64,000 bases of DNA from a virus (Duplodnaviria > Caudoviricetes), in IMG/VR virus record IMGVR_UViG_3300012662_000009, positions 94,647 to 158,646 of that record. One strand, 5' to 3'. Positions 2,446 through 63,898 of this stretch are shown piece after piece. The position numbers and the translations under genes are program-made. How positions within the stretch are numbered: the first letter of the stretch is position 1; each line of letters starts with the position of its first letter. Below the pieces are notes generated by a model that made no database searches, was not told the origin of the DNA, and saw only the letters and a list, made by a program, of their open reading frames with translations.

Positions 2446-3588
2446 ATGAGTGACACAAATAATATATATGCAGAGATAAAAGCTCCCCAATTGAGCGATG
2501 CAAAATATGGTGATAATCTTGATTCGCAATTTAATGCAATTAATAGTAACTTTACTAAAATAGGATCAAGTGCTTTTACAAGGGGTGATAAAGGAGACTC
2601 TGTAAATGCATATAGATTGGATATTACTGATAAAGTAAAAGATACTTATAAAGACGATTATAAAAAAGGTATTATAGCCCAGGCTATATATATGGGGTTA
2701 GATCAGGATGGATTAGGTCCTATACCTATTTCAAAAGATGCAAAAATAGAAGTTTCAGTAATTATTAATGATATAGAAAATCCTATTTTAAAAAGCTTTT
2801 GGTCTTTATATGTAGCGGGCAAGACACCGTGGTCAACCAGTAAAAATCTTTTATCTGTCGTAGAAAATATCTTAATTGATATTATGCCGTTCTTTTATAT
2901 AGATAAAAATTTTTATTCTGAAAATTTAAATCTACCTAATGATAAAAAAGATAAAACGGGCATTTATACTTTCGAAAATATATCTCCGCGCGACGGGCTA
3001 AGAATCTTATTCACTCAAAACCCTATTTCTCAAAGCATTTATTATAATACTAATAAAGAAACCTGGTGTTGGGCTTTAGGAAGTAATCAAACGGACATTC
3101 CTATATATAAACAAACTTATGATGATAAAATTTTGATTCCTTGGGGAGATGACAAAGACACTTATCACGCCATGTATGTTTATAAAGGTAGTGATGAAGG
3201 AACAAGAAAAAACAGTTTAGCTATTAGCCCATATAGAAAAAATAAAAATGATCAATGGGAAGCTATTAAATGGAAGCCTACAGATGAAGATTCAACATGG
3301 CCTGAATTGAATCTTGATAATTACTATTTAGTCCATGCAAATAGGGTTTTGGCAAGCAGCGGATATTTCAGAACATTATCATCACAGAGATTTTATACAG
3401 AAGACATTATATCAACTGAGAAACCATTAAATATTACTGCCAGTAATGGGATTAAAATAACTGGTGGGATTAAAATCAATATTGGGGGAGAAAATCAAGA
3501 TTTGGAACAATATTTAACTCGGCTCGATTCAAGAATTATATCTTTAGAAACAAAACAAAAGAATCCTCTATCTAACACTCCAAAATAG
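2446..3588 (+). CDS. Hypothetical protein, possibly tail-associated
   Basis: 380-aa ORF; short RGDKGDS collagen-like triplet and C-terminal coiled coil. Confidence 0.45.
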   Translation: MSDTNNIYAEIKAPQLSDAKYGDNLDSQFNAINSNFTKIGSSAFTRGDKGDSVNAYRLDITDKVKDTYKDDYKKGIIAQAIYMGLDQDGLGPIPISKDAKIEVSVIINDIENPILKSFWSLYVAGKTPWSTSKNLLSVVENILIDIMPFFYIDKNFYSENLNLPNDKKDKTGIYTFENISPRDGLRILFTQNPISQSIYYNTNKETWCWALGSNQTDIPIYKQTYDDKILIPWGDDKDTYHAMYVYKGSDEGTRKNSLAISPYRKNKNDQWEAIKWKPTDEDSTWPELNLDNYYLVHANRVLASSGYFRTLSSQRFYTEDIISTEKPLNITASNGIKITGGIKINIGGENQDLEQYLTRLDSRIISLETKQKNPLSNTPK

Positions 3589-3646
3589 GTTAAGATATAT
3601 AAATCTATATAAAATATATTTTGCGCGAAATTTGATATGTTTATGC
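3569..3646. repeat. Dispersed palindromic element, copy 1 (right arm degenerate)
   Basis: caaaataggttaaGATATA-TAAATC-TATAT...ttttgcgcgaaatttgatatgtttatg; shares core and flanks with the other four copies. Confidence 0.7.
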
Positions 3647-3700
3647 GCATTATAAATATATTTTTAGAATATCCTTTAATGTATAAATTAAAAAAATAAA

Positions 3701-4450
3701 ATGAAAAATATAAAAGAATATATAAACGAGTCACTTTTTGATGACGAAGATGATTTACTTGATAAGAACCCAGATCAAGTAATATTTGATTATTTGAAAA
3801 GCATAGTCCTATCACATCAAGTTAAATATGTAGATGAGGAATTTTATATAAAGAATGGTATAATATACTATAGAGGAAGTGATCAATTTACATTTACCAT
3901 CGAAAGCCCTATGCCTTCTTATATAAATTTTGATAAAAAATCCTGTGGTGATAATATTATTTCTTTATTAAGTTATAATGGAATATCTCAGGAAGATTTG
4001 GATAGGCTTCCTGGTGGGGTCTGGTTAATAAAATCTAATAGATTGTCTAAATTAACTATTCCTATATACAAGGCTCTTGATTTACAGGAAGTGAATATTT
4101 TTAATAATGTTATACTTAAGCCTGTTGAAGAATATACTAATATTGCAATAACTATTGGTAAAAGAAAGCAGAATAAACTAACCCCTAAAGATATTATGAA
4201 TTTATCTGTTCAGGGAAAGGATCCGGAAGTATGTCTCCGTATAATTAACCAGAATGATTATAACGATATTAAAAATATGCTATTGAGTGATCCTGATTTT
4301 TCTAAGCATGTTATAAAGGATCTCCATTGTTCTGTAATAGTTGGTAATTATGGGGGTAGAGAAAAATATTTTTTAGAATATTTAGATATGTCCGATAACA
4401 TTACTGACGTGATATCAAAAGGTCAGTGGAGAGAAAGATGTGAGATATAA
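3701..4450 (+). CDS. Paralog family member (LFD.E..L.DKNP); putative internal virion protein
   Basis: N-terminus MKNIKEYINESLFDDEDDLLDKNP shared with 16271, 32059 and 43011 ORFs. Confidence 0.65.
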   Translation: MKNIKEYINESLFDDEDDLLDKNPDQVIFDYLKSIVLSHQVKYVDEEFYIKNGIIYYRGSDQFTFTIESPMPSYINFDKKSCGDNIISLLSYNGISQEDLDRLPGGVWLIKSNRLSKLTIPIYKALDLQEVNIFNNVILKPVEEYTNIAITIGKRKQNKLTPKDIMNLSVQGKDPEVCLRIINQNDYNDIKNMLLSDPDFSKHVIKDLHCSVIVGNYGGREKYFLEYLDMSDNITDVISKGQWRERCEI

Positions 4451-4453
4451 TGA

Positions 4454-13330: not shown

Positions 13331-14290
13331 ATGAACAAAGACATTAAAGTAAAAGATCTCAAGAGAGATTATGATATGGGATTTGAACCCACAGAAGATT
13401 ATTTAGATTCTATGCCTGATATGCAAAACGCCCCTTATAGTTCTAAATATCGCATTAATAAAGTAGGTATACATAATTTCAAAATGCCTCTTAAGGTTAT
13501 TCAAAAAGATGGAGGGTCTCAAGAGGTTATGGCTACAATAACTGGTACAGTTTCATTAGAGGCCAATAAAGCAGGTATTAATATGTCCCGTATTATCAGA
13601 ACTGCTTATAAATCAGTAGATGATATCTTTAGCATTGATAAACTTTGCGATGTCCTTACGAATTATAAAAAAGACCTTCATAGCTTCGATGCTCATATTA
13701 TTATGAAATTTCCTTATAGACTCTGGCAGAACGCGCTGAAATCTAAAAAAGGCTCTGGAGAACCTGAAGGGGGCTGGCAATATTATGACGTGACTTTTGA
13801 TGTTAATCTTAATAAAGAAGGTCAATTCAGAAAAGTTATGTATATTGATTATATATATTCCAGTGCATGCCCTTGTAGCACCGCTCTATCGGAATATGCT
13901 GCGTATACTAGGGGGGTTTATGGAATACCCCATTCACAACGATCTGTAGTTAAATTAGGTATTGAATTTGATAAACTTATATGGATCGAAGATGTTATTT
14001 CAAAATGCCGAGAAGTGGTTCCTACGGAGACTTTGGTGTTCTGCAAAAGAATCGATGAAATGCAATTTGCGATCTTAAATGGTGCTCAACCCAAATTCGT
14101 AGAGGATGCAGCTCGAATATTTGCTAATATGCTTGATGAAATGCCTGATGTAATTGATTACAGGATTATCCTAAGCCATTTAGAAAGTCTGCATGATCAT
14201 AATGCTATAGCGGTGATTACTAAGGATATAAAAGGATCTAAATTTGACGATGAAATTTCTTATGAAGACTTTAATGCTTTGATCCGTTAA
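13331..14290 (+). CDS. folE2: GTP cyclohydrolase IB
   Basis: GINMSR, SACPCS, PHSQRS, PKFVED, ESLHDHNA. Confidence 0.9.
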   Translation: MNKDIKVKDLKRDYDMGFEPTEDYLDSMPDMQNAPYSSKYRINKVGIHNFKMPLKVIQKDGGSQEVMATITGTVSLEANKAGINMSRIIRTAYKSVDDIFSIDKLCDVLTNYKKDLHSFDAHIIMKFPYRLWQNALKSKKGSGEPEGGWQYYDVTFDVNLNKEGQFRKVMYIDYIYSSACPCSTALSEYAAYTRGVYGIPHSQRSVVKLGIEFDKLIWIEDVISKCREVVPTETLVFCKRIDEMQFAILNGAQPKFVEDAARIFANMLDEMPDVIDYRIILSHLESLHDHNAIAVITKDIKGSKFDDEISYEDFNALIR

Positions 14291-14379
14291 ATATTTTGTA
14301 AACATTGTTAACGAGCCCTTAAGATATACTTGAGGGCTTTGTTTTTATTATTATAAGGTTATTATAAAAAAGCCTATAC

Positions 14380-14691
14380 ATGAAAGCGCGTATTAAAGGA
14401 ACTACGAAGAGCATAGAAATAACTCAGATAAAAGGTATATATAATAACTCCGATGTCCTTTATCAAGACTCTGCGGGTCAGACCTATACTAAAGATCAGT
14501 TAGACATTACTAATATAATTATTCCATCGAGTACTGCACCCGATTGGTTTAAGATTTATACTGATATAGTCATAACATCCCTTAAAGAATTTATAAAACT
14601 TAATAAATCAGAAGACTATATTGCGCAAATGTCAATAAAACAAGCTGATAGTCTTATTAAATTATTGCAAGAAAAATATGAAACATCATAA
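14380..14691 (+). CDS. Hypothetical protein
   Basis: 103-aa ORF. Confidence 0.5.
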   Translation: MKARIKGTTKSIEITQIKGIYNNSDVLYQDSAGQTYTKDQLDITNIIIPSSTAPDWFKIYTDIVITSLKEFIKLNKSEDYIAQMSIKQADSLIKLLQEKYETS

Positions 14692-14766
14692 AATAAATAA
14701 AACATGTATCTTAGCTGATATTGTATTAGGATTAAGTATCTTAATATATTGTATAATCCTCTTTGC

Positions 14767-15081
14767 ATGAAATATTATCTGCGCTTTGGAGATATTCCTG
14801 TTAATGGTCTATCAAACATCTGGTTAAATAATCAGATCATAGGCCAGGAACTTGGTGTATCTGCATATGATACTGTTTTAATGACCGATGGATGGCATAT
14901 AATACTACCTAAACCAATAACTCATAGAGGAATCCACACATTAAATATATTAATAAACGATAAAAGACCTGTATACATACTTTCTGGTGAAGAAATAGGC
15001 ATAGGTACTGATGGAGAACCTCTCCTTAAAAATCCTAAGATTTTATTAGAAATCACACGAAATTTTTGGGAGGGTCACTAA
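14767..15081 (+). CDS. Hypothetical phage protein
   Basis: YLRFGDIP...ELGVSAYD...GTDGEPLL; ATG at 14767 preferred over upstream TTG. Confidence 0.55.
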   Translation: MKYYLRFGDIPVNGLSNIWLNNQIIGQELGVSAYDTVLMTDGWHIILPKPITHRGIHTLNILINDKRPVYILSGEEIGIGTDGEPLLKNPKILLEITRNFWEGH

Positions 15082-15149
15082 AGATTTTATAATCATTTGT
15101 TATATCAATACATAAAAGATAATATAATTAACTTATAAAACTAACTAAG

Positions 15150-15629
15150 ATGAAAGAGTTTGAACAATATGATATAACAAAAATTCATCAGCTAAGAATA
15201 TTCAATCCCTTCAAGAAATTTCTTTTCTTTGGATATGCTTATCGTGATGACACTCCTGAATATGAAGGTTACACTTATCGTGAAAAAGTGCCGACTGATA
15301 ATAAAGGTTCCCGAATTGTGTTTGCTATCTCGGTGCAAATGATAATCCTTTATGTATTATCTATAATTTGGAATATTTTTGGTACAACCACGGCTCATGA
15401 AAGTGTAACTTTTACAAGTTCACAGATATGGGTCATTGGGCTTATAGGATATTTTACAATACCATCATTGATATACTTAATATTAACCCATATAGAAGAA
15501 AAACGATATGAGATTATGATGATGGTCGAGGACTTTAATCATGATTCATATAAAAAATATGCGAAATCACTTTATAGAACCACCATGCATAATAAAATTA
15601 GAAATCGTTTAGATGAAATATATAAATAA
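15150..15629 (+). CDS. Hypothetical membrane protein
   Basis: Two hydrophobic segments; promoter motif at 15079-15105. Confidence 0.55.
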   Translation: MKEFEQYDITKIHQLRIFNPFKKFLFFGYAYRDDTPEYEGYTYREKVPTDNKGSRIVFAISVQMIILYVLSIIWNIFGTTTAHESVTFTSSQIWVIGLIGYFTIPSLIYLILTHIEEKRYEIMMMVEDFNHDSYKKYAKSLYRTTMHNKIRNRLDEIYK

Positions 15630-15662
15630 CTTAATTAATATTAACATATAAAAATTACTATC

Positions 15663-16196: not shown

Positions 16197-16220
16197 TTTT
16201 GTTAAAAATGCCAATAAAAT

Positions 16221-16248
16221 AAAAAAGAGACCTTAAGGTCTCTTTTTT
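16221..16248. terminator. Bidirectional intrinsic terminator
   Basis: Perfect palindrome aaaaaagagaccttaaggtctctttttt between convergent genes. Confidence 0.85.
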
Positions 16249-16270
16249 ATGTAATATGGAATAATATAAA

Positions 16271-17727: not shown

Positions 17728-18897
17728 ATGAGTGGATTATCAGGACATATGTTAAATCTTTGGGAGGACCTAAGTCTGACTAAAGCAGACCTTAAAGAAA
17801 TCATCCAGAGATCTTTTGAAAATCGTTTTTGTTTCAAAGAAAAAATTGATGGATTCAACATCCACTTCTTTATAAAAGACGGTGAACTCCGCTTCGCAAG
17901 AAATAAAAAGGACCTCTTAAATGGGGGTATGGATCTTGACGGAATATGTAATCGATGGTTTAATAAAAAAGATATATTTGATGTTTATAAAGATGCTTAT
18001 ATGATCTTATCCGATACTCTGTTCACATTTCAACGAGGTCTTCCCGCATACACTCCAAAGTTTAAGAATAGCATTGTAACATATAATTGTGAGTGCTTCA
18101 AAGCAGGAATCACTAATGTAGTTCCTTATGAGTTCGGTGGAGTAGCTATCCATAATATCTGGGAATGGGATCTCGATAGCAATGAAGTGATTATAACAGA
18201 CTTTAATGATGTTAATAAAGGATATTTTCAGTTCTTGTGTGATCCTTATGTATATATAGAACTTAAAGATTCCTACAAATCTTTATATAAATATTATAAT
18301 GACACCATAGATTCCATATTCGGTCAATGTAAGACCATAGAAGAACTATATCAAAGGGAGTTTTTAATATACCTTAAAAAAGACTTTGCACATGCTTTTA
18401 AACATCCTGAGTATATTAAATATATCTTTAATAGAATCTTCAAAGATGATAATTCGTTTAATCTTAGGGACTTAAAAAAGATATACAAAGATCCGGAGGA
18501 ATTTTGTACTGAGAATATTATAAAAACCTTAATAGATCTTAAACAAGATGTCAAATATACTTGTTATGGAGAACTTAGGAAAACTCTTATAGAAATAGGA
18601 GATGTTCTATTAAGGGATGCAGATTGTTATATTAATCAAATTTATAAATATAAAGCTCAGGATATTCTGCGAAAAGAAATAAATGACGCTATTGATAGAT
18701 TGATTAAGTGTGGTAATCAACACACAATAAATATCGCCAGTAAGATTTATCATGAATATGTTACTGGAGGTTCTACTATAAACCCCCTTGAAGGTGTAGT
18801 ATTCAATTACAATAATCAAACCTATAAATGGACAGGATCGTTTAGTATTATTAATAAAATAATAGGACTATCAAAATCATATGATAAAAAAATTTAA
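17728..18897 (+). CDS. Ligase-like nucleotidyltransferase-fold protein
   Basis: KEKIDG (motif I-like), LEGVVF (IV-like), YKWTG (V-like). Confidence 0.5.
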   Translation: MSGLSGHMLNLWEDLSLTKADLKEIIQRSFENRFCFKEKIDGFNIHFFIKDGELRFARNKKDLLNGGMDLDGICNRWFNKKDIFDVYKDAYMILSDTLFTFQRGLPAYTPKFKNSIVTYNCECFKAGITNVVPYEFGGVAIHNIWEWDLDSNEVIITDFNDVNKGYFQFLCDPYVYIELKDSYKSLYKYYNDTIDSIFGQCKTIEELYQREFLIYLKKDFAHAFKHPEYIKYIFNRIFKDDNSFNLRDLKKIYKDPEEFCTENIIKTLIDLKQDVKYTCYGELRKTLIEIGDVLLRDADCYINQIYKYKAQDILRKEINDAIDRLIKCGNQHTINIASKIYHEYVTGGSTINPLEGVVFNYNNQTYKWTGSFSIINKIIGLSKSYDKKI

Positions 18898-20095
18898 ATC
18901 CTTTATAACAGAAAAAGATCAAGCTTGGCAAACAATAGCCAGAGACGTTAAAGATATATACAATTATATAGATACATCTAAATTTCCTCCATATAGCATC
19001 TTCAAAAAATTTATAGAAAACACTGGTGAGACTGATATAAAGTTTATATGCAGGAATGATGGTGGGTGTTCTTATATAAAGATTCCTTATATATATGATG
19101 AATATCTTACCATTGCAGCAAAAAAATCTAATGGAGTATTCACTAAAGGTCCTTATAGTGGCAGTAAATGTAATTTTTATTATAATAAAAAGAAATGTAT
19201 AGAACTTGGTAACGGCTCTGTAAATCGGGTCTCAACAAAAGATCAGGAAAGTAATACAATAAGACTTTATAACAACTATTCTAATCTTGTGCAGGAATCT
19301 TTAGAGGATATTGAAAATATCGCCCGTGATTTGGCTATAGATAAGACATGGGTGAAATCTTATAAAATGCAATTGATATCTATTATAAATTATATAGAAT
19401 CGTTTGGTGGAGCTCCCGGTGATTATAAAATGGCTCGAGTTGATAAAAGTTCCCCCATAGGGGCCGCCTACGAGGGCATGGTAAATCGTTATAGAATTAA
19501 AATAGGACACAAAGATAGAAATACTGTAGATCCTTCTGACGTAATACTATATAAAAAACAAAACGAAGGTTCGATTATAAATCTCTTAAAATCCATCGAA
19601 GACATCAAAGAATTTCGCGAGAAACTTTTTAATACTAAAGAAGTCATCGGAATATCCCTCAAAAAGCTCGGTAAGAATAGTAAAGGCGTTTATGAATTTA
19701 ACAATGGTAAGATCCATATAAAATCTATTAAAGAAATCTATGGTTTCACTCGGACATCCAATAAACAAGATCCTTCCAAAGAAGGCAGAGGTATTAAATT
19801 TAAAGTTGATTATATAGACGGAGAAGATCAAACAAGGACTATTACATGTGTTCTCAGGACCTTCGGAAGAGAATCATTAGATTTTAGTATAGACGGTACG
19901 ACATATCAAGTAGGTAAATCACCCAGAGCTCTTTGGATGAAATATCTTAATGTTACTAATAAAGACTCTATGACGGATATCTTTAATAAAATGGAAAATC
20001 TCATAAATAACAAACAATATGATATCTTATTGAAGATCATTAAAGGGTCTTTTAAGGAAGGAGATCAATGCTTTCCTTTTATAATGTTGCATTAA
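18881..20095 (+). CDS. Putative PD-(D/E)xK nuclease with capsid-targeting-like N-terminus
   Basis: DPSDVIL...VIGISLKK; N-terminus MIKKFKSFITE. Confidence 0.5.
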   Translation: MIKKFKSFITEKDQAWQTIARDVKDIYNYIDTSKFPPYSIFKKFIENTGETDIKFICRNDGGCSYIKIPYIYDEYLTIAAKKSNGVFTKGPYSGSKCNFYYNKKKCIELGNGSVNRVSTKDQESNTIRLYNNYSNLVQESLEDIENIARDLAIDKTWVKSYKMQLISIINYIESFGGAPGDYKMARVDKSSPIGAAYEGMVNRYRIKIGHKDRNTVDPSDVILYKKQNEGSIINLLKSIEDIKEFREKLFNTKEVIGISLKKLGKNSKGVYEFNNGKIHIKSIKEIYGFTRTSNKQDPSKEGRGIKFKVDYIDGEDQTRTITCVLRTFGRESLDFSIDGTTYQVGKSPRALWMKYLNVTNKDSMTDIFNKMENLINNKQYDILLKIIKGSFKEGDQCFPFIMLH

Positions 20096-20116
20096 AGAGG
20101 AGGATTTCATAAATGT

Positions 20117-20195
20117 GATTTAACAAAGAGAAATAGGCTCGATATAGATTTATATATCCGAGCCTATTTTGATCGAAATTTAATATGTTTATGTG
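20117..20195. repeat. Dispersed palindromic element, copy 2
   Basis: gatttaacaaagag-aaataggctcgatata-GATTTA-tatatccgagcctatttt-gatcgaaatttaatatgtttatg. Confidence 0.85.
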
Positions 20196-20287
20196 AGTTT
20201 ATTATATATTTTAATCTAAGACACCGTTAATATATTGATTCATGATCTTCATATAAAATTATTTTATCCTACTATCATTAAATTGGG

Positions 20288-21634
20288 TCATTCCAAGCTC
20301 GTCTGTATATCTCTGGACCTTTCAAGACCTAATTCATCTACCAGTGGTTTATAGCAATATATAAACCAATCAAGTTTTATGTAATCTTTATTATTACTAA
20401 GCGTTTCTTCTATGGCTTTTTTGAGGTTATAATATTCAACATCAATGTTTTCTAATATCTTTTTATCCCATTTCTTCATCAGGACATCTAATATAGAAAA
20501 TATTATAAAGTGCTTATGATATTTTTCATCCTTCAATGCACTATCATATTCTTTAGGAACATTTTCAAGGAATTTCTTAAAATACTCTTTATAATTCTCT
20601 ACCTTATCTCTATCTATATCGGATTTGAAAGGTCTTAATTTAAGTGTATCATCAGATCCTCCATAAATATCATAAGGTTCTATATTATGTTTTTTATTAA
20701 ATTCTTTGAGTTTCTCTTTATATTCTGTTTGTGATTCTATATCAAGAATTTCAAGTAATTCATCAAAGTCTTTTTGCTGGTCTGCATCCAAACATTTTTT
20801 AAGAAGTCTTTGATATCTTTTATGAAATAACGGATTAGATTGTAATCTCATTATAACCAATCCTTTATTATTATCGAACTCTGGTAATAATTTATCGCAA
20901 TATTTCTTGAATTGTTCAGGAGTATTTACTATATACATCCAATCCTTAGCATTATCTATATTATCTCTCCAGATTTCATATAAAAACTTTTGGTTTTGCA
21001 AATGTTGCATAGCTACCACACATTTCTTATAACCCATGGCTTTGAAATATGATAAGAACCTACATTTAGATACATATGTATATTTCTCTAATATATCTTC
21101 TTGTTCTAATGTATGATTCCATTCATCATATCTAAAGGGATAATACATACTATATTCAAATGGAACAACACCAAAAGCGGTACCACTACAGTAGTCTGTA
21201 AACGGCCTATATTTATCTAAATATACTCTTTTATAAACATCCATATCGCAATAAGGCTTAGCATTAGAGCATTCAAGGATTGATAAAATATCGTGTTGTC
21301 TCTTATTATTCTCCCTCATATACTTCATCATAGTATAATAATCTTGCGACATAAGTTGCTTCTCAGTTTCTCCTATGAGTGAAGTAAGATCCCAATATTT
21401 TCTTGGAATAAGCTCTCTTTGATCTTGCAAGATCCTCGGGGTCTTGTCTTTTATAGCTTTTATAAGGGCCTTTCTTTTATCGGTACCGTTTAAATTCTTT
21501 ATATTATAATCTTTATCCCATTTAATTGTGACTGAATTATTCCCATATTTATGTTTAGCAATAACATAATATATAGCATCATCAGATATTATATCGCCTC
21601 TTTGCTCAAGTATAAAGTCTTGTAAAGTTTTCAT
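20288..21634 (-). CDS. Protein with DUF5591/ArcS-like domain and capsid-targeting-like N-terminus
   Basis: ILECSNAKPY and GVVPFEYSMYYPFRYD resemble ArcS/DUF5591 CSxxKPY and GxVPxExxxxYP motifs; starts MKTLQDFILE. Confidence 0.55.
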   Translation of the reverse strand: MKTLQDFILEQRGDIISDDAIYYVIAKHKYGNNSVTIKWDKDYNIKNLNGTDKRKALIKAIKDKTPRILQDQRELIPRKYWDLTSLIGETEKQLMSQDYYTMMKYMRENNKRQHDILSILECSNAKPYCDMDVYKRVYLDKYRPFTDYCSGTAFGVVPFEYSMYYPFRYDEWNHTLEQEDILEKYTYVSKCRFLSYFKAMGYKKCVVAMQHLQNQKFLYEIWRDNIDNAKDWMYIVNTPEQFKKYCDKLLPEFDNNKGLVIMRLQSNPLFHKRYQRLLKKCLDADQQKDFDELLEILDIESQTEYKEKLKEFNKKHNIEPYDIYGGSDDTLKLRPFKSDIDRDKVENYKEYFKKFLENVPKEYDSALKDEKYHKHFIIFSILDVLMKKWDKKILENIDVEYYNLKKAIEETLSNNKDYIKLDWFIYCYKPLVDELGLERSRDIQTSLE

Positions 21635-25887: not shown

Positions 25888-26566
25888 CATTATAGCCTTA
25901 ATAATAACTGTTTTAATATTCATATTTAGTATCTCTGGGTGTGTTTATAAGTGTAATAGAGATCAAATAAACATCTTAAAACAAAACCTCAGAGCAGCTC
26001 AAGATACTATAGAAGTGGTTAAATTAAGCAATGGAAATCTTTTATATGAAAAAGCTGCTTATATACTCAATGAAAAAGATCTTCTTAAACAACTTAATAT
26101 GACAAAAGAAGAACTCAAAGAAATCAAGAAAAAAGCCGGGCGGCCTATTTATATAACTGATATTCAAACTATTATTAAATATGACACTATAAATACTACT
26201 AAAGATTCTATTATATATCGAAATGGAGATCTCGATTATACTTTTAAGCACAATGACGAATGGTTAAGTTTCCGCGGCCATACACTTATAAAAGATTCTA
26301 TACCATCCACTCAAATCTTTGATATAACAATACCCACAGCTCTCAAAGTAGGTCTCACTAAAGATTATAATATATTTGTAGAACCAACAAATCCTTATAT
26401 GAGCATCACGAGCATCGAAGGAGCTATTCTTGACAAATCATCTATAATTAAAAAACCTAAGATCACACATGGTCTCACAATAGGCTTGGGTGTACAGTAT
26501 GGGATACTTAACAAACAATTTGACATAGGTCCACAAATATCCTATGGATTACATATCAATTTTTAA
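25868..26566 (+). CDS. Membrane-anchored coiled-coil protein (possible spanin-like lysis protein)
   Basis: N-terminal TM, coiled coil, C-terminal beta-strands ending in F (GLGVQYG...SYGLHINF). Confidence 0.45.
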   Translation: MKIMKNNIIALIITVLIFIFSISGCVYKCNRDQINILKQNLRAAQDTIEVVKLSNGNLLYEKAAYILNEKDLLKQLNMTKEELKEIKKKAGRPIYITDIQTIIKYDTINTTKDSIIYRNGDLDYTFKHNDEWLSFRGHTLIKDSIPSTQIFDITIPTALKVGLTKDYNIFVEPTNPYMSITSIEGAILDKSSIIKKPKITHGLTIGLGVQYGILNKQFDIGPQISYGLHINF

Positions 26567-26644
26567 AAAGAAACATGGATAGATCACTAAAGATTCATCC
26601 ATGTTTTGTTATATAGATACATTAATAACTAACTTATAAATACA

Positions 26645-27605: not shown

Positions 27606-27641
27606 AAGGAGCCTATATTATATACAAAAAAAAGATACATC

Positions 27642-29263: not shown

Positions 29264-29324
29264 AAAATCTGCTGAGCAGGAATGCTCGTGTGAGTTCGAC
29301 TCTCACTGGTGGTACTATAAAATA

Positions 29325-29502: not shown

Positions 29503-29511
29503 CAAAATAAA

Positions 29512-29613: not shown

Positions 29614-29616
29614 GAT

Positions 29617-31958: not shown

Positions 31959-31984
31959 CATACCTCTATAACACGCATAGAAGA

Positions 31985-32052
31985 GATTTAACAAAGAGAA
32001 ATAGGCTTAGGTATATAAATCTATATCTAAGCCTATTTTGATCGAAATTTGA
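31985..32052. repeat. Dispersed palindromic element, copy 3
   Basis: gatttaacaaagag-aaataggcttaggtata-TAAATC-tatatctaagcctatttt-gatcgaaatttga. Confidence 0.85.
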
Positions 32053-32058
32053 GAGGTT

Positions 32059-32910
32059 TTACGCGTAATCTTTCATGGAGCGAACTATGTCACTTTCTAC
32101 ATTATTTGTCGCCCAGAGGAGAAGAATAGGATCTCCACCGCGAGTTACCAATTGTAGGAGGCCTTTGGAGTTAAGATAAAATCCATCAATTCCGTTATCA
32201 ACCATTTGACTGAACTCTTTAATATGATCAGATATTATGTATCTATTAAGACCATGATCTTTCATTTCTTTATAGACATTTTTAAGATATTTAATTACAG
32301 GGCCTTTCTCATCTGTAAAAATTATTCTAAACAATTTTTTACCTTCGGATTGTATATTACTGAGATCGTAAAAATTTACATTGGAATTTATAATGGATAT
32401 AAATCTAATCACAGCACTATGATCAATAAATTTTAAATTGAGATTTCGGATGGAATTAATCCCTTTTAATTTAAGAATTGACTGTTCATCCATTTTACCA
32501 GAAACATTTATATTTATGTTTTTGATATCCTTATTATTTTCTATAAAAGATATTAGTCCTGCGCCGGGAATATCCTTTTGAGATTTGATAGGATATTCTA
32601 TATTTATGATTATTACTTTATTCCAGGGTTCTTCTTCTAATTTAATCCATTTCGGAATCGGATTAAATAATCTTAAACTCCTACCTAAAGAATCTCTAAA
32701 TGTCCTCTTGATGTCTACCTTTCCTTCAGGATTAATGAAAAAATCATTGGCTAATTTCCTATTATCATTGTCCCATAATCCACGAGCATTTATAGGATCT
32801 TTGAACCAGTCAATCATAGATTGATTGGGTGTCTTATCCAATAAATCATCTTCTTTATCGAAAAGAGATTCATTAAAGGATTTTATTATATATTCTTTAA
32901 TATCTTTCAT
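32059..32910 (-). CDS. Paralog family member (LFD.E..L.DK.P); putative internal virion protein
   Basis: MKDIKEYIIKSFNESLFDKEDDLLDKTP. Confidence 0.65.
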   Translation of the reverse strand: MKDIKEYIIKSFNESLFDKEDDLLDKTPNQSMIDWFKDPINARGLWDNDNRKLANDFFINPEGKVDIKRTFRDSLGRSLRLFNPIPKWIKLEEEPWNKVIIINIEYPIKSQKDIPGAGLISFIENNKDIKNININVSGKMDEQSILKLKGINSIRNLNLKFIDHSAVIRFISIINSNVNFYDLSNIQSEGKKLFRIIFTDEKGPVIKYLKNVYKEMKDHGLNRYIISDHIKEFSQMVDNGIDGFYLNSKGLLQLVTRGGDPILLLWATNNVESDIVRSMKDYA

Positions 32911-42506: not shown

Positions 42507-43042
42507 AAATAATCTTTACAGGGGCACAAGGAACTGGCAAGACAACTATTTTAAATCATTATAAAAAACAAGGTTATAATATCATCACAGAAGTAGTTAG
42601 AAATCTCTCTAAAGAAGGTGTTAAAATCAACGAAATGGGTGATTTAGATGGTCAAAAAAGAATCTTTAGTGAATATAGAAAAACTCTTAATAAAGAAAAA
42701 TCTTATATATCAGATAGAGGTCTTACTGACGTAACAGCATATACTTCCTATTTGGGTATAAAAAACGATAATTTAGATCTTCGATTGGAGTCTTTATATC
42801 AATTAGTAGATATCACGGAATTTTATAATAATAATACAGATGTAATAACATGTTATTTTCCTATAGAATTTCCTGTAGTAGATGACGGAGTAAGATCTAT
42901 TAATGAGGAATTTAGACATGACATAGACGAGAATATTAAAAATATTTTGGATGGTATTGGTATCCAATATTATACAATCACCGGCACCGTAGAAGAACGC
43001 ATTAAACAGATTGATAAAATTATTCAAGATGTCACTCTTTGA
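42503..43042 (+). CDS. AAA_28 / NadR-like P-loop kinase
   Basis: FTGAQGTGKTT, ISDRG, DDGVR. Confidence 0.75.
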   Translation: MKIIFTGAQGTGKTTILNHYKKQGYNIITEVVRNLSKEGVKINEMGDLDGQKRIFSEYRKTLNKEKSYISDRGLTDVTAYTSYLGIKNDNLDLRLESLYQLVDITEFYNNNTDVITCYFPIEFPVVDDGVRSINEEFRHDIDENIKNILDGIGIQYYTITGTVEERIKQIDKIIQDVTL

Positions 43043-43724
43043 ATCTGAGGATGAAATCCTTGATAAAAATCCTTCTATAATAGCGTCTAATTGGATTTCA
43101 AAAAACATCGTATGGAATCATGGTGATGTCCGGCATCAAGAAGACTGGAAACGATTTGTTAAGATAATTCCATCAGGCAATAAATTTATTATTAAATGCA
43201 ATATGCCTCTCATCGCAGAATTTCTTACACCGCTTCCTGAATGGCTTATAATAGATAAAGATTGTTTTATTGAAAATACCATAGGATTTATCATACATTC
43301 ACAAAAAGACATCGATGCATTTCCAAGTATCCACAAAGTAACTAATAATAGCAATATTGAAGATCTAACATTTTATACAAAGGCTAATAGTATTATCTTC
43401 GAAGGCCCATGTCAATTTAAGAATGTTCATATAACATCAAAAGCAAATAATTTAATTGACTGTCGAATAGATTCGTTTGGATATGATATAAATAATATTA
43501 CAGAACTACACTTTCATAATTTCAATAAATCCTCTATAACACTTATAAATCCTGGAATATCGCAAGAAGAATGTGTTAATATATGTAATATAGACAAATA
43601 TAGACCTTTTATAGAACATGCTAAGAAACTAAACATTCATTTTATTAATTTCGCATATTTTATAAATGATGAACCGAGATATATTTCATATAAACTTAAA
43701 AAAGGCAATTATATTATTTCATGA
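43011..43724 (+). CDS. Paralog family member (LF..E..ILDKNP)
   Basis: MSLFESEDEILDKNP; true start probably ATG at 43029. Confidence 0.6.
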   Translation: MIKLFKMSLFESEDEILDKNPSIIASNWISKNIVWNHGDVRHQEDWKRFVKIIPSGNKFIIKCNMPLIAEFLTPLPEWLIIDKDCFIENTIGFIIHSQKDIDAFPSIHKVTNNSNIEDLTFYTKANSIIFEGPCQFKNVHITSKANNLIDCRIDSFGYDINNITELHFHNFNKSSITLINPGISQEECVNICNIDKYRPFIEHAKKLNIHFINFAYFINDEPRYISYKLKKGNYIIS

Positions 43725-43760
43725 ATAAGTGAAGAATATTGTACATATTATTGAACACGA

Positions 43761-43838
43761 ATAAATATATCAAATTTCGATCAAAATAGGCTCAGACATA
43801 TAAATCTATATCGAGCCTATTTTGTTGCGTATATGAGC
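43761..43838. repeat. Dispersed palindromic element, copy 4
   Basis: caaatttcgatc-aaaataggctcagacata-TAAATC-tatatcgagcctatttt-gttgcg. Confidence 0.85.
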
Positions 43839-43845
43839 TTCTAAA

Positions 43846-44640
43846 TTATTTCATAAAATCTAATTTGAGTTTCTTATATTTCTTTAATGCTTCTTCTTTC
43901 TCTAAAGGAATATCCGTGCGAGGAAGTATTAACATATTAAATCCGTTTTCTTTCATTGTTTGAATGAATTTAAGATGTTTTTTGTACCATTTTTCAGGAT
44001 CAGCTTTAAATTCCTTAAGAACCATCTTAGCACCTTTTGAATTAGTATCCATAAAAGTTGCTTTGTCCGTGTTATTAATCAACCTAATATTTGAGGCAAA
44101 ATTATAAAATTCATTATCATTCATAGGAGTCCTCACGCCATTCTGCTCTACCACAAAGTATTCTTTACCAGGCCATTGTGCTCTATATTTGCTATTCCAA
44201 GCACTTAGATCAAGTGTTAAATTCTTGAGTTTCGTAGCTACAATTTTGAAGCCCGTATATTGATGTTTCATAATACCTATGTTTTTAAGTACTATATTGG
44301 GCTTCTTAATACTTTCATAAACATCTACTATCTTACCGGGGATCACATCAATATCTTTTTGATTCCGAACACTGAAGCTAATAGTTACAGGGACATTCGA
44401 CCAAGAATCCTCATCAAATTTTATAAAATTAGGTATGGGCTCGGCAAATTCAACACCATCACCATAATTAATATCTTGAGGCCCCTTCCAAGTTACTATT
44501 CCATCGGTAATTTCCATAATATCATCAACAGAAGGATTACCAGGCAATCTAACTATAACAGCGTCATCATCATGCATCCATTCTTCAGGTGTTTTAATTG
44601 CTTCGTTTATACTCTCTAAGTAATTTCTAAGATTTTCCAT
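43846..44640 (-). CDS. Distant paralog family member; putative internal virion protein
   Basis: MENLRNYLESINEA; internal PIPNFIKFD...QKDIDVIPG shared with the family. Confidence 0.55.
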   Translation of the reverse strand: MENLRNYLESINEAIKTPEEWMHDDDAVIVRLPGNPSVDDIMEITDGIVTWKGPQDINYGDGVEFAEPIPNFIKFDEDSWSNVPVTISFSVRNQKDIDVIPGKIVDVYESIKKPNIVLKNIGIMKHQYTGFKIVATKLKNLTLDLSAWNSKYRAQWPGKEYFVVEQNGVRTPMNDNEFYNFASNIRLINNTDKATFMDTNSKGAKMVLKEFKADPEKWYKKHLKFIQTMKENGFNMLILPRTDIPLEKEEALKKYKKLKLDFMK

Positions 44641-46275: not shown

Positions 46276-46701
46276 TTAAAGTTTTCTTTGAGCCTCTGAT
46301 TGAAGTGATCCTGATACCGATCTTATATATGATATTGCTTGATCAACACCCGATATAGAACGCCATTTAGTTGATGAAGCCATTACAATACCATCTCCTT
46401 TATCCTTAAAGACTATTAAAAAAGTCTTTTTAGATGTATGACCTGCAATATAATCATGATAGCCTACAGTAGCTACTACCCATTTACCAAAATCAGTAAC
46501 TTCAGCAAAGTAATTTGTCCCAAAGCTATTAACTGCGCTTTGAAGAGCTCGGCCGAAATTGTTATTGGCATGCATACGAGGATCGTCAACATCGACATAT
46601 ATACCGGGACCTTTATCTACTGATGAGGGATTTTTTTTGGCATTATAACGATCGTCTTCGTTTATAAGCGGATCTATATATAATATTGCATCGTATTTCA
46701 T
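46276..46701 (-). CDS. Hypothetical protein
   Basis: 141-aa ORF in the structural operon. Confidence 0.5.
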   Translation of the reverse strand: MKYDAILYIDPLINEDDRYNAKKNPSSVDKGPGIYVDVDDPRMHANNNFGRALQSAVNSFGTNYFAEVTDFGKWVVATVGYHDYIAGHTSKKTFLIVFKDKGDGIVMASSTKWRSISGVDQAISYIRSVSGSLQSEAQRKL

Positions 46702-46749
46702 AGTTATATAATAACATAAAAAAAGGATCCTTTATAGGGATCCTTTATA

Positions 46750-47043
46750 TTAAAATTTAGGCATATTCATTGAATTTGGGGAGCCCGTATTAAAATTAGG
46801 AGAAGCCATTTTAGGCATTGAATTTGACATCATCTTATTCATATTACTGGGTTTCGCCATATCCATATATTCATTTACATGATATTTTTTCATTTCTGAC
46901 TTCTGTTTATCATTCTCTTCTTTAACGATATCATTAAGTTGCTTTATAAATAATTCATACTCCCAAGCTGGTAATATATCGATCTCAGAAGGTTGTATAT
47001 GAAATTGTTTGGCAAGGACAGCTTTCATTTTGATATAATTCAT
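46750..47043 (-). CDS. gp51-like baseplate hub assembly protein (start uncertain)
   Basis: LAKQFHIQPSEIDILPAWEYELFIKQL; follows the gp26-like gene. Confidence 0.6.
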   Translation of the reverse strand: MNYIKMKAVLAKQFHIQPSEIDILPAWEYELFIKQLNDIVKEENDKQKSEMKKYHVNEYMDMAKPSNMNKMMSNSMPKMASPNFNTGSPNSMNMPKF

Positions 47044-48302: not shown

Positions 48303-49862
48303 ATGACTCACCCAGATTCCTATAAAAATATTATAACAGGACGTTTATCTTTGGATAATTGGCTTATAAGATATTATAGTGAATTTTACCAATTTTTAAA
48401 AGACCATTATGTAGATTGCACTACAAAAGAAGCATTATATATGTTTTATAATAATATAGAAGAGAAACCTTTATGCAAAGCTTGTGGTAAACCTGTTAAT
48501 TTTCATGGGTATGTTAAGGGATTTGGAGAGTTTTGTTCAAGTAAATGCGCGCAAAATGATAAAGAAGTTCGTGAAAAATATAAAAAATCTAATATACAAA
48601 AATATGGGGATAATTATACTGAGCAATTTATTAAAAAAGGCAAACAAACATGTCTCAAAAGATATGGAGTAGAAAACATAAGCAGTATCCCAGAATTTCG
48701 TGAAAAAGCTAAACAAACATGTCTTGAAAGATATGGAGTTAATAACCCAATGAAATCTAACACAATACAAGATAAATCGAAACAAACATGTCTTGAAAGA
48801 TATGGTAATGAATATTATTTCCGTTCAGAAGAGTATGATCGTAAAAGAAAAGAATGTTTAGAAAAATCACGAAAGACATGTCTTGAGAAATATGGCCATG
48901 AATATGCTATTCAATCAGAGGATACAAAGAAAAAATTAAGAGGGACATGTCTTGAAAGATATGGTGTAGAGTATATGTGTTTATCACAAAAAGCTCATAA
49001 TTCAAGAAATTCTCAAAGTAAACCAAATGAAAATTTTAAAGATTTATTAATTGAAAATAATATAAAATATGAAAAAGAAAAATACTTATGCGGAAAGTCT
49101 TTTGATTTTTTAGTTAACAATACTTTAATTGAGATCAATCCATATCCTACACATAATATTAATTGGAATCCATTTGGAGGAAAAATGATAGGAAAAACAT
49201 ATCATTATGATAAGACTAAATTGGCGCGGGATAATAATTATAGGATAATTAATATATGGGATTGGGATGATAAATCTAAAATAGCAAAATCTTTAATTAA
49301 AAAGAATAAATTATACGCCAGAAATTGTACCATTAAACGTATAAATAAGAAAATTTTAGATGAATTTCTAAATCAATATCATTTTCAGAATACATGTAGA
49401 AATCAAAGCGTTAGATTAGGATTGTATTATAATAATGAATTGATTCAAGTAATGTCTTTTGGCAAACCAAGATATAATAAAAAATTCGAATATGAATTAA
49501 TTAGGCTTTGTACAAAGTTTGAATATATAATTATTGGGGGTGCAGAAAAGTTATTTAATTATTTTATAAAAGAATCTAATCCTCAATCCATTATATCTTA
49601 TTGTGATAATTCCAAATTTTCAGGTAATGTGTATAATAAATTAGGATTTAAACTAATATCAAGAGGAAATCCTTCAAGGCATTGGTATAATAGCAAAACA
49701 AAAACCCATATAACAGATAATTTATTATTAAAAAAAGGATTTGATAATATATTTCATACAAATTATGGTAAGGGAAGTTCTAATGAAGAATTAATGAGAT
49801 CTTATGGATTTGTAGAAATTTATGATGCAGGACAAAGTACATACGCTTGGTACTCAAATTAA
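48303..49862 (+). CDS. Free-standing endonuclease-like protein: zinc finger, KQTCLERYG repeats, PD-(D/E)xK-like and GNAT-like domains
   Basis: CKACG...FCSSKC; five to six (K/R)xTCLE(R/K)YG-type repeats; FDF...IEIN; YELIRLC...GGAEKLF...SYCD. Confidence 0.65.
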   Translation: MTHPDSYKNIITGRLSLDNWLIRYYSEFYQFLKDHYVDCTTKEALYMFYNNIEEKPLCKACGKPVNFHGYVKGFGEFCSSKCAQNDKEVREKYKKSNIQKYGDNYTEQFIKKGKQTCLKRYGVENISSIPEFREKAKQTCLERYGVNNPMKSNTIQDKSKQTCLERYGNEYYFRSEEYDRKRKECLEKSRKTCLEKYGHEYAIQSEDTKKKLRGTCLERYGVEYMCLSQKAHNSRNSQSKPNENFKDLLIENNIKYEKEKYLCGKSFDFLVNNTLIEINPYPTHNINWNPFGGKMIGKTYHYDKTKLARDNNYRIINIWDWDDKSKIAKSLIKKNKLYARNCTIKRINKKILDEFLNQYHFQNTCRNQSVRLGLYYNNELIQVMSFGKPRYNKKFEYELIRLCTKFEYIIIGGAEKLFNYFIKESNPQSIISYCDNSKFSGNVYNKLGFKLISRGNPSRHWYNSKTKTHITDNLLLKKGFDNIFHTNYGKGSSNEELMRSYGFVEIYDAGQSTYAWYSN

Positions 49863-62477: not shown

Positions 62478-63719
62478 ATGAATAAGATTTTAGCAGATTT
62501 AGAGTTCAATACAGTTATTAATGAAGCTCACGCGCGGACTCAAACAGGCGCTGAATTATTAAACAAGTATAAATCCTTTATAATGAATCATGAGATTACT
62601 TATGATCTTGTTAATTCGTTTGTAAAAGAAGCTCAAATTTGTCGTTATGACAATGGTATAAATCAAATACTTGAATCTGTTGCTGATTATATCAACTGCA
62701 ACAAAACTTCCTGGGCTCTTGCTACTGTATGTGAATCAATAAATCATAGCAATGCCTCGTATAACTATCTTAATAAGAATGCTGTAAAACATGTTGAAAA
62801 ACTTCTCGAGATGCAAGAAGAAGATGTTGTTAAGTATATTAAAGCAGGCGCCCTTAAAAATGTTATGTATTGCGAAGGCTTCCGTAATATTGCTAAACAA
62901 GTATATAAAAATCAACCTGTTGTAGAAGCTTCGGCTGATTATCTCAAGGCTACTCCGGTATCTATGATAGAAAATGTAGGCGATGGATTTTGCTTTGAAG
63001 TAGCAGGAACTCTTTATAAATTAGATGATGATAAGAATATCCAAGAATGTCAATGGAATGAAGTATCTAATACTTTCAAAACTGTATCGTCCCTTTTAGA
63101 ATCCAGCATATGCGAAGTAAATTCTGATACAATCATTATTAAGGCTCCCAATGCCACTTATGAAATCTCTGAAGCCGATAACATCACAAAACATGGCAAG
63201 GAAGGTGATATCAAGATGACTCTGGAGCAATTGCGCGATAACAATCGCCTTATCCTCACTGCCACCAATCCCCATCATCGTAATAACTTAGCAGGTGTTC
63301 TTGAAGCCATTGCCCTGACATGTGAGAACTATGATAAGATTCTGAGCATGGATAATACGACAATATACTCTACAAAGAACGATAAATTTGTTGTTATAGA
63401 ATCCGGTAATAATCTCTATGCCACGCTTTTACAATCCAATAGGCATCCTAAATGGACTATTAATGAAGACGCTATTAACGCACTTTCCTTTATCAAATCA
63501 AAAACCAATGTATCTCTTGATGAAAACTATGCGGAGATTGTAAGCAATGTCTTAGAAAATACTTCTATAGATGAACAGGAGAAATTAGAAGAAGAATTTA
63601 AGAATAATAAAATAAATTCTTATAAGGAGCGCATTGAAGCCCTTACGGAAAAGTTTAAGAATGATCCTGTGAAATTAGCAGTACTTTCCAAGCTGGCTAA
63701 GGATGTAGCTCAAGTTTAA
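62478..63719 (+). CDS. Hypothetical protein, possibly prohead core/scaffold
   Basis: Many (I/L/V)-x-E sites (VINE, ILES, LLEM, VVEA, MIEN, LLES, INED, VLEN). Confidence 0.45.
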   Translation: MNKILADLEFNTVINEAHARTQTGAELLNKYKSFIMNHEITYDLVNSFVKEAQICRYDNGINQILESVADYINCNKTSWALATVCESINHSNASYNYLNKNAVKHVEKLLEMQEEDVVKYIKAGALKNVMYCEGFRNIAKQVYKNQPVVEASADYLKATPVSMIENVGDGFCFEVAGTLYKLDDDKNIQECQWNEVSNTFKTVSSLLESSICEVNSDTIIIKAPNATYEISEADNITKHGKEGDIKMTLEQLRDNNRLILTATNPHHRNNLAGVLEAIALTCENYDKILSMDNTTIYSTKNDKFVVIESGNNLYATLLQSNRHPKWTINEDAINALSFIKSKTNVSLDENYAEIVSNVLENTSIDEQEKLEEEFKNNKINSYKERIEALTEKFKNDPVKLAVLSKLAKDVAQV

Positions 63720-63765
63720 AAATTCTTATAAAATATCTTTATATTTGCTCCATGCATGGAGATAT

Positions 63766-63792
63766 AAAACCTGGCTTTGGTCAGGTTTTTTA
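63766..63792 (+). terminator. Intrinsic terminator
   Basis: aaaacctggc-tttg-gtcaggtttttt. Confidence 0.75.
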
Positions 63793-63821
63793 TTGGATAT
63801 TTAATTACTCTCATATTTGCT

Positions 63822-63898
63822 CTCTAACATAACAAAATAGGCTCAGATATAGATTTATATATCTGAGCCTGTCAAAGTCTGTTAAATCGCTTCTAAAT
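63822..63898. repeat. Dispersed palindromic element, copy 5
   Basis: ctctaacataac-aaaataggctcagatata-GATTTA-tatatctgagcct-gtcaaagtctgttaaatc. Confidence 0.85.

Follow-up and report, generated by a model that had tools for sequence, protein, structure and literature searches.

The DNA analysed here is a stretch of 64,000 nucleotides (the window) from an uncultured T4-like phage, the whole record of which (the contig) is 158.6 kb long with a CheckV completeness of 97%. Positions are those of the window unless preceded by the word contig. Dispersed along the window are five copies of a palindrome of about 40 bases, in which 17-bp inverted arms enclose a 6-bp asymmetric core (17-6-17). Each palindrome lies between two outer flanks of 25-45 nt, flank, hairpin and flank together forming a cassette of roughly 95-130 bp (Table 1). 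A first-pass annotation of this DNA had picked out the five palindromes, their inverted arms around an asymmetric spacer, three flank types (A, B and C) combined in the order C-B, A-B, A-B, B-C and C-A, and a core that is inverted between the two A-B copies. All of this was borne out, the core reading GATTTA at 20150 (copy 7) and TAAATC at 32019 (copy 8) between identical flank types. A half-arm search allowing up to 3 mismatches returned 8 matches in the window, compared with 0.93 expected from shuffles.

Table 1 Element copies and neighbouring features in the window
Feature	Position (nt)	Strand	Description
ORF	2446-3588		Stop inside the left arm of copy 6
Copy 6	3563..3649		C flank, decayed palindrome at 3583-3622, B flank; co-directional junction
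T4-late-type TATAAATA	3651-3658		Just after copy 6
Paralogue	3701..4450	+	Capsid-tag-leader family; downstream of copy 6
Copy 7	20107..20198		A flank, palindrome at 20131-20169 (core GATTTA), B flank; genes 18881-20095 (+) and 20288-21634 (-) converge on it
Copy 8	31976..32066		A flank, palindrome at 31999-32038 (core TAAATC), B flank; genes 31341-31958 (+) and 32059-32910 (-) converge on it
Paralogue	32059..32910	-	3' end 20 nt from copy 8; stop codon within the B flank
Paralogue	43011..43724	+	Ends 60 nt before copy 9
Copy 9	43756..43840		Inverted B flank, palindrome at 43784-43822 (core TAAATC), degenerate C flank; two capsid-tagged paralogues converge on it
Paralogue	43846..44640	-	Ends 22 nt from copy 9
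Ordinary terminator	63766..63792	+	Of gene 62478-63719; just upstream of copy 10
Copy 10	63801..63905		C flank, palindrome at 63835-63874 with core GATTTA, inverted A flank

Mapping all copies genome-wide, as the first-pass annotation had recommended, gave ten palindromes on the contig (contig 63, 46901, 58180, 71204, 94173, 98249, 114796, 126665, 138450 and 158501), numbered here in that order, together with one scar at contig 15397-15450 that retains an A flank only. A profile search of the contig found no copies beyond those ten. The contig ends overlap, though imperfectly, and one metagenome contig spans both; copies 1 and 10 are therefore probably a single locus, and the ten copies probably amount to nine loci on a circular map. 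No relatives were detected by megablast of 16 kb against phage records, nor by scans of IMG/VR with hairpin and flank patterns, and a scan of GTDB genomes matched unrelated terminators only. The terminase is at most 32% identical to those of T4-like phages and 54-61% identical to those of four distant relatives (G001-G004). The palindrome motif is absent from these four, and two of them (G003 and G004), read through completely, have no repeated palindrome family.

The elements lie in an accessory-gene neighbourhood. Among flanking genes of at least 100 aa, 14 of 17 are without homologues in three relatives, as against 62 of 145 genome-wide (P 5e-4). Capsid-tag paralogues make up 6 of the 18 element neighbours (P 9e-4); this family, defined by its capsid-tag leader, numbers 14 genes, five of which end at an element. 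Three copies in the window had been described as abutting it, and these are copies 6, 8 and 9.

Hairpin anatomy and gene ends

As RNA, four of the five window copies have folding energies between -18 and -24 kcal/mol and z scores between -4.6 and -6.9; when only the core 32 nt of the stems are folded, the values are -10 to -20 kcal/mol. In copy 8 one stem pair is altered on both sides. Copy 6 has lost its right arm and is unfolded, with a hairpin of only -1.3 kcal/mol, and this sole decayed hairpin stands at a co-directional junction. Convergent junctions hold 7 of the 9 loci (P about 8e-6 relative to the junction mix), among them the three window copies (7, 8 and 9) originally reported between convergent genes. 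Stop codons are found 0-165 nt from the hairpin, and in seven loci both flanks face gene 3' ends. The remaining convergent junctions have two-way terminators too, ordinary and unique ones that follow the same plan of A-run, stem and T-run, and ordinary terminators elsewhere in the genome all differ from each other. The U-tracts of the elements follow need: in all 13 directions from which a gene without a terminator of its own arrives, the stem is followed by 5-6 U within 8 nt, compared with at most 3 U in the four directions where termination is not needed, a correlation that represents few independent cases because copies 1, 2 and 10 are of common ancestry.

This anatomy and placement suggest that the element is a two-way intrinsic (Rho-independent) terminator. 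Because the stem stands between an A-run and a T-run, transcription would be stopped from both directions where gene blocks converge; that termination does take place at the elements is our reading of their sequence. The last copy had been put forward as one that termination alone cannot explain, given the ordinary terminator standing before it. That terminator is indeed present, and the same arrangement recurs at contig copy 2, but the conclusion drawn from it was wrong: copy 10 has a U-tract on the minus strand only, which faces the converging gene across the circular junction, so that this copy too is explicable as a terminator.

The flanks were also considered as promoters. Sigma70, extended -10, Bacteroidota-type and T4-late motifs were tried, and none fits with correct spacing. 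A scan for promoter-like consensus sequences gave 65 sites, compared with 78.5 expected, none of them inside element flanks; the nearest match is on the minus strand at 20230-20201, just past the B flank of copy 7. TTGACA-N16-18-TATAAT has no match in the whole genome, in which Shine-Dalgarno sites are hardly used. Mini-ORFs in the A flanks are not conserved when the copies are compared by direct reading.

Could the palindromes have a sequence-specific function beyond termination? They might be DNA sites for a phage protein or RNA elements of mRNA 3' ends, i.e. stability or RNase III-type processing hairpins or 3'-UTR modules of flank plus hairpin, and selection would then also maintain the likeness of the copies. 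No mutation of the 6-nt loop is seen in any of the ten copies or in four further copies from metagenomes, compared with about 6% changes in the arms. In a related contig (L014, see below) the hairpin departs from the family consensus at a single position, whereas the surrounding DNA is 82-84% identical. Moreover, transcription from the incoming gene would nearly always pass through a flank before it reaches the hairpin, so that the flank belongs to the 3' UTR of that gene, and the mutual differences among ordinary terminators point the same way. However, the loop occurs in both orientations at co-directional as well as convergent sites, so no single RNA loop sequence is maintained. Furthermore, hairpin and flanks are about equally similar among the intragenomic copies, as recent copying or conversion predicts, no Rfam family matches the element, and the distant relatives lack such a family. 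We give a function of this kind a low but real probability.

Mosaic flanks, related contigs and candidate enzymes

The copies have 40-70 bp of near-identical sequence in common, and copy 7 and contig copy 5 share a 70-bp stretch that is identical. All three flank pairings are present, and within each pairing the core is found in both orientations. A modules are tandemly duplicated at copy 1 and at the scar, the junction of which joins 8 nt of a palindrome arm to a leader fragment. The copies thus appear to double as homology patches where the genome recombines.

For comparison with closer relatives we used four short, low-coverage metagenome contigs (L006, L014, L020 and L023). At or adjoining an element, three of the four (L014, L020 and L023) differ by a rearrangement, a replaced gene or a novel joint, while L006 is collinear, a count that comes from few contigs of low coverage in which chimeras are possible. 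In L014 (82% identical), the right side of copy 2 is joined to a homologue of contig gene 13838-15367 and the core is flipped. In L023, sequence from the left side of copy 7 passes into sequence from the right side of copy 5, the joint falling inside a run of 70 identical bases; such a joint is as expected of a circle or a tandem duplication between copies 5 and 7, and might also be an assembly chimera formed via the 70-bp repeat. Comparison of L020 with the two contig ends reveals one locus in two haplotypes, the difference lying in the A flank; L020 also has a bacterial-type DeoR fragment aboard and is possibly chimeric too. The A flank of L006 is patchily converted. An empty site, i.e. a locus from which the element is absent, was not seen in the relatives compared. 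In G002, the only complete relative, synteny is so scrambled that breakpoints at elements are indistinguishable from background. The initial proposal of recombination or gene-shuffling hotspots thus gains support from the mosaic flanks, the core flip, the tandem A modules, the scar and three of the four related contigs.

Inverted 17-bp arms around a 6-bp asymmetric spacer would also suit a site for a tyrosine recombinase of the lox, dif or attC type, supplied by phage or host, and the flank combinations resemble products of exchange at the palindrome. No recombinase had been visible in the window, and none was found in the 97%-complete genome either: searches for Phage_integrase, Resolvase and Y1 transposase (PF01797) gave no match, with integrase and resolvase controls positive, leaving a host enzyme as the possible source. 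Three further observations speak against such a site. Firstly, the core is flipped between unchanged A and B flanks in copies 7 and 8, a flip that two-site recombination of the lox/dif type does not give rise to. Secondly, the tandem A duplications and the microhomology scar put exchanges outside the core, and exchange points are found in the flanks as well as in the hairpin. Thirdly, the A/T tracts and the placement suit a terminator. We hold a tyrosine-recombinase site to be highly improbable, and the tyrosine-recombinase or HUH-transposase mechanism of the first-pass annotation is not sustained. Chloroplast non-coding DNA offers a parallel for the flip itself, in the form of hairpin-associated minute inversions whose loop flips repeatedly and independently of the flanks. 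As with the core here, the flipping loop lies between short inverted repeats, although the genetic system is a different one and the chloroplast hairpins do not form a dispersed repeat family.

Transposase-moved, non-autonomous elements were considered as well. REP and BIME sequences are bacterial palindromes with roles in termination, in mRNA stability and as recombination substrates. Like the phage element, they measure about 35-40 bp, are imperfect in their symmetry, lie where genes end (in many cases between convergent genes) and combine with a small set of flanking motifs into mosaics, and the dispersed, near-identical, 3' intergenic copies described here would fit a REP/BIME-like or MITE-like family; since the family is confined to this phage lineage, recent spread is suggested. 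Yet REP/BIME sequences are mobilised by RAYT (Y1) proteins and number hundreds per bacterial chromosome, whereas here there are nine phage loci and neither a Y1/HUH transposase nor an integrase or resolvase in the genome. A MITE is further contradicted by the palindrome being central rather than terminal, by outer flanks A, B and C that are mutually unrelated and by the absence of target-site duplications at the borders. The small non-autonomous mobile element suggested at first fails for want of terminal inverted repeats and target duplications, and together with the lack of an empty site in relatives this makes transposase-driven movement very unlikely.

A phage nuclease might instead cut an extruded hairpin or cruciform and so start recombination, the elements then being part of a dedicated cassette-exchange system. 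Candidates are one of six HNH-type "homing endonuclease" paralogues, which match phrog_3339 and phrog_559, or the gp46/47 SbcCD-like complex, of which an SbcD-like gp47 homologue is encoded in the genome. One endonuclease paralogue lies directly upstream of the scar, its L014 homologue lies directly upstream of an intact element, and a second paralogue is one gene away from copy 4; in addition, the folding energies of the palindromes in single-stranded DNA are -9 to -12 kcal/mol. However, just 2 of the 6 endonuclease genes are near an element, cleavage at nine sites would require the phage to protect its own genome, and the exchange points in the flanks agree with general recombination. Searches for endonuclease VII and for GIY-YIG nucleases were both without match, as was a PDB sequence search with an endonuclease-like paralogue. 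We judge active targeting by a nuclease unlikely. Decidedly unlikely is the fuller scheme, in which palindromes and 5' capsid-tag leaders together make up the exchange system, with an HNH paralogue or the SbcCD-like gp46/47 cutting the extruded hairpin. The break would then direct recombination to the 3' boundary of accessory genes, and the conserved flanks and invariant loop would serve as recognition features. If true, this would be an integron-like device without an integrase. Integron attC sites are likewise imperfect palindromes at the 3' ends of exchangeable gene cassettes, but their recombination depends on IntI, a tyrosine recombinase, and on the folding of single strands that carry extrahelical bases, and an integrase is absent here.

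A model of exchange and its parallels

We consider it probable that the elements are a terminator-centred variant of PeSL-type recombination linkers, acting through general homologous recombination rather than as a lox/dif-like site. In this model, the cassette has been copied to nine loci, mostly beside lineage-specific accessory genes. As the copies are near-identical over 40-70 bp and palindromic, recombination machinery of the general T4 type could pair any copy with any other, whichever way round the two lie. Flanks and adjacent genes would be swapped by crossing-over and gene conversion, which would also preserve the likeness of the copies and give rise to duplicated flank modules, and exchange or template switching inside the arms would flip the loop. 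Such recombination would be tolerated because a crossover within a two-way terminator spares both converging transcription units. The agent would then be general homologous recombination and not a dedicated enzyme. The model does not explain the conserved 25-45-nt flanks or the unmutated 6-nt loop.

To our knowledge, the only sequence devices described for the swapping of accessory genes in T4-like phages are the promoter-centred PeSLs and the motifs of the ip locus. PeSLs (promoter-early stem-loops) are regulatory cassettes of T4-type phages (Arbiol et al. 2010, PMC2839356; Comeau et al. 2014, PMC4122927). Like the elements described here, they are short repeated intergenic cassettes with a terminator stem-loop, and they occur in the variable parts of T4-like genomes, beside ORFs specific to a lineage. 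PeSLs are associated with insertions, deletions and replacements where close relatives differ; here L014, L020 and L023 hint at something similar, with L006 collinear and chimeras possible among these short, low-coverage contigs. Circular excision products of neighbouring copies are a further mark of PeSLs, and the L023 joint, if genuine, would be of the kind expected. In both, modules can be degraded or duplicated by slippage and a dedicated recombinase is not known. In PeSLs, however, it is a strong outward sigma70-like (or Mot-type) early promoter, placed directly after the stem-loop and followed by a Shine-Dalgarno sequence and the start codon of the next ORF, that is conserved, the stem-loops vary, and the location is between co-directional ORFs. 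In the phage element the conserved part is the 40-bp palindrome, which is two-way and mostly lies between convergent genes; its flanks contain no recognisable promoter, which makes the parallel incomplete.

The second parallel is the ip locus of T-even phages, where conserved motifs bracket internal-protein genes (Repoila et al. 1994, PMC395341, as summarised in PMC2839356). According to that summary, variable genes with capsid-targeting leaders are bracketed there by non-coding motifs with AT-rich stem-loops, and cassettes are replaced by homologous recombination; the likeness here is that 5 of 14 leader-bearing paralogues end at an element. As summarised, the ip elements are based on T4 early promoters and have weak, variable stem-loops, and so differ from one dispersed, conserved two-way palindrome. 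Because the phage element adjoins genes with capsid-targeting leaders, exchangeable cassettes for injected proteins may have their 3' boundary at such an element.

These comparisons reveal no new kind of enzyme or mechanism. The phage element would rather represent a second design, a symmetrical two-way terminator that recombines in either orientation and leaves both converging transcription units unbroken. If confirmed, this design would help to predict the plastic sites of uncultured phage genomes, and the element draws attention to one way in which assemblies of viral metagenomes come to be broken or chimeric.

Ten copies of one palindromic element

The first-pass annotation had recognised five palindromes in the window, each with two arms around a 6-nt core (the loop of the hairpin) and outer flanks of type A, B or C. 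A search with the half-arm pattern returned 8 matches against 0.93 expected, forming these same five palindromes, with arms of 17 nt, at the positions reported; flank types A, B and C, and the way they combine, agreed with the earlier description. Genome-wide mapping placed ten copies, numbered here along the contig, with centres at 63, 46901, 58180, 71204, 94173, 98249, 114796, 126665, 138450 and 158501; a profile search of the contig found none beyond these ten. An A-only remnant, or scar, lies at contig 15397-15450. By flank type, four of the ten copies are A/B, three are B/C and three are A/C; none has the same type on both sides, an outcome with a chance probability of ~0.02-0.06 as computed from the pairing counts; both loop orientations are present in every pairing class. 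Palindromes of 100 bp or more are unstable. Homotypic flanks would give a palindrome of at least this length, and its instability may thus explain why homotypic copies are absent. The loop was unmutated in 14/14 sampled copies, where the arm rate predicts ~3-4 changes, and the flanks are conserved over 25-45 nt.

Contig positions 1-244 and the last 208 bases (window 63793-64000) are homologous in an imperfect overlap, the differences residing almost solely in the A flank (a 36-bp tandem duplication of A plus a substitution cluster). A metagenome contig from a related phage, L020, bridges the two ends, running from the DNA left of copy 10 into that right of copy 1. Thus, copies 1 and 10 are probably a single locus on a circular map, present as two haplotypes in the record, which leaves nine loci.

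Predicted termination at convergent gene ends

Convergent genes surround 7 of the 9 loci, as against 19 convergent junctions among 165 overall (P about 8e-6). The remaining convergent junctions carry ordinary two-way terminators, all different in sequence, which have a common plan of A-run, short stem, 4-nt loop and T-run. RNA folding of the family hairpins gave -18 to -24 kcal/mol (z -4.6 to -6.9), the sole decayed hairpin (window 3583-3622, -1.3 kcal/mol) being found at a co-directional junction, with a T4-late-type TATAAATA after it. Wherever a gene comes in with no terminator of its own (13 directions), the 8 nt past the stem contain 5-6 U, while the four directions with no need for termination have 2-3; in three of these four the incoming gene already ends in an ordinary terminator shortly before the element (copy 1 plus, copy 2 minus and copy 10 plus strand) and no gene arrives at the fourth (copy 3 minus strand). 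Copies 1, 2 and 10 have a common ancestry, so some of these cases are not independent of one another. It had been argued that termination alone does not explain the last copy in the window; this objection falls, as the ordinary terminator beside it would end the plus-strand transcript, whereas the palindrome (window 63835-63874) would act on the gene converging across the circular junction.

In a set of three paralogous genes, two members retain their own two-way terminators (contig 35816-35901 and 110843-110916, the latter being window 16197-16270), the stems of which differ by paired changes. The third (contig 46277-46840) is followed by a palindrome element in place of its own terminator, in what looks like a terminator replacement.

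All-against-all comparison of predicted proteins grouped 14 of them into a family whose N termini share a conserved leader, a putative capsid tag. Its members make up 6 of the 18 element-adjacent genes (P 9e-4), and 5 of the 14 end at an element. Among genes of at least 100 aa, 14/17 flanking genes are without a homologue in the three related phage records compared, as against 62/145 genome-wide (P 5e-4), and no flanking gene in the window matched Pfam or named PHROGs. Together, these data place the elements in the variable part of the genome.

Proposed exchange between copies

One scan of metagenome contigs identified four true relatives among 27 pattern matches; by pattern scans of IMG/VR and GTDB and by comparison with four distant relatives, the palindrome family is confined to the lineage of this phage. 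L006 (98% identical) runs collinear with the reference through copy 4, with a patch of the A flank changed to the variant of copies 5/7/8. In L023 (99% identical), the left of copy 7 is joined to the right of copy 5, the switch point falling within a 70-bp stretch identical in both, the joint that a circle, or a tandem duplication, of the 20.6 kb separating two direct copies would produce; L023 could alternatively be an assembly chimera. L014 (82% identical) reads, in order, right side of copy 2, C flank, hairpin (the loop inverted with respect to copy 2), diverged A flank and a homologue of the endonuclease-like gene that adjoins the scar. The reference has a tandem pair of A modules after this gene, then the first 8 nt of an arm, which microhomology has fused to a piece of leader from a lost paralogue. 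The scar region also contains two or three more partial capsid-tag leader copies on the minus strand, interrupted by stops. In L020 (99% identical), only the last 38 codons survive of the gene left of copy 10, the rest having given way to a DeoR-sensor ORF, either a captured bacterial gene fragment or the product of a chimeric low-coverage contig; at L020:1-216 the DeoR C-terminal sensor domain (E 1e-12) begins but is truncated by a stop. In G002, the only complete relative, synteny is broken every few genes, a background too scrambled to single out elements. Exchange points in the hairpin, the flanks and nearby are the signature of homology-driven events, and these differences between relatives at the elements, seen in few, short, low-coverage contigs that may include chimeras, lend some support to the recombination or gene-shuffling role first suggested.

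Short homology suffices for T4-type recombination (PMC2839356). Any two copies of the palindrome could pair, whichever way round they lie, and a crossover within the predicted two-way terminator would leave both converging units with a terminator, so that flank swapping and block inversion would be tolerated. The loop could flip between unchanged flanks via exchange or template switching within the arms; loop flipping occurs at hairpins in chloroplast DNA. Such a flip is at odds with recombination between two lox-type sites, and searches of the genome for Phage_integrase, Resolvase, Y1 transposase, endonuclease VII and GIY-YIG gave no match, leaving the tyrosine-recombinase or HUH mechanism raised earlier unsupported.

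Six HNH-type endonuclease paralogues, 509-722 aa long, have hits to phrog_3339 'homing endonuclease' (E down to 1e-123), to phrog_559 'HNH endonuclease' and to Pfam DUF7487; compared by sequence with solved structures, they gave no match. One immediately precedes the gene for the large terminase; another adjoins the scar and, in L014, the element. Active nuclease targeting at the elements, or a sequence-specific protein or RNA role there, has a low probability.

Endonuclease-like paralogues and the scar region (L041, the reference contig in full)
Feature	Coordinates	Strand	Remark
Endonuclease-like paralogue	window 48303-49862	+	PHROG/Pfam match
Endonuclease-like paralogue	contig 13838-15367		adjoins scar
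Endonuclease-like paralogue	contig 26299-27948	-	PHROG/Pfam match
Endonuclease-like paralogue	contig 28696-30387		PHROG/Pfam match
Endonuclease-like paralogue	contig 68642-70429		PHROG/Pfam match
Endonuclease-like paralogue	contig 83973-86141		PHROG/Pfam match
Scar region	contig 15349-15640 (L041:15349-15640)		private hairpin after endonuclease-like gene, then A modules and arm-leader fusion

Known cassettes and the source phage

The closest known counterparts are the promoter-early stem-loop (PeSL) cassettes of T4-type phages, in which a terminator and a promoter make up a motif that recurs in hyperplastic regions, mediates indels and gives rise to mini-circles (PMC2839356, PMC4122927). Also close are the analogous motifs at T-even ip loci (Repoila 1994, as cited in PMC2839356, PMC4122927). 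The present family resembles PeSLs in its predicted terminator and its placement, and may also resemble them in being associated with differences between relatives, as suggested by three of the four related contigs. However, no PeSL-type promoter is recognisable, as none of the sigma70-like, extended -10, Bacteroidota-type or T4-late motifs sought in the flanks fits, and both flanks face gene 3' ends in most copies; moreover, it is the palindrome itself, predicted to act two-way, that forms the conserved core. Thus, the family is probably a variant of such terminator-bearing linker cassettes, outside the PeSL family proper. REP/BIME, MITE, attC and lox/dif readings each lack a defining feature; the anatomy speaks against the small mobile element first suggested, with neither terminal inverted repeats nor target-site duplications present.

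The 158,646-bp source contig (31% G+C, rated 97% complete, classed 'linear'), in which the window spans bases 94647-158646, encodes a T4-type large terminase, 54-61% identical to those of the closest IMG/VR records, together with an anaerobic ribonucleotide reductase, a UvsW-like helicase, an SbcD-like gp47 homologue and four tRNAs. Across the whole contig, a Shine-Dalgarno-like core precedes 6/166 genes, and the host is probably not reliant on Shine-Dalgarno pairing. The T4-late-type TATAAATA is ~fourfold enriched between genes, with 22 of 106 sites in the intergenic 5.5% of the genome. Inside ORF 774-2444, at window 852-884, tandem short units build a near-perfect palindrome of 33 bp that has no relation to the element family.
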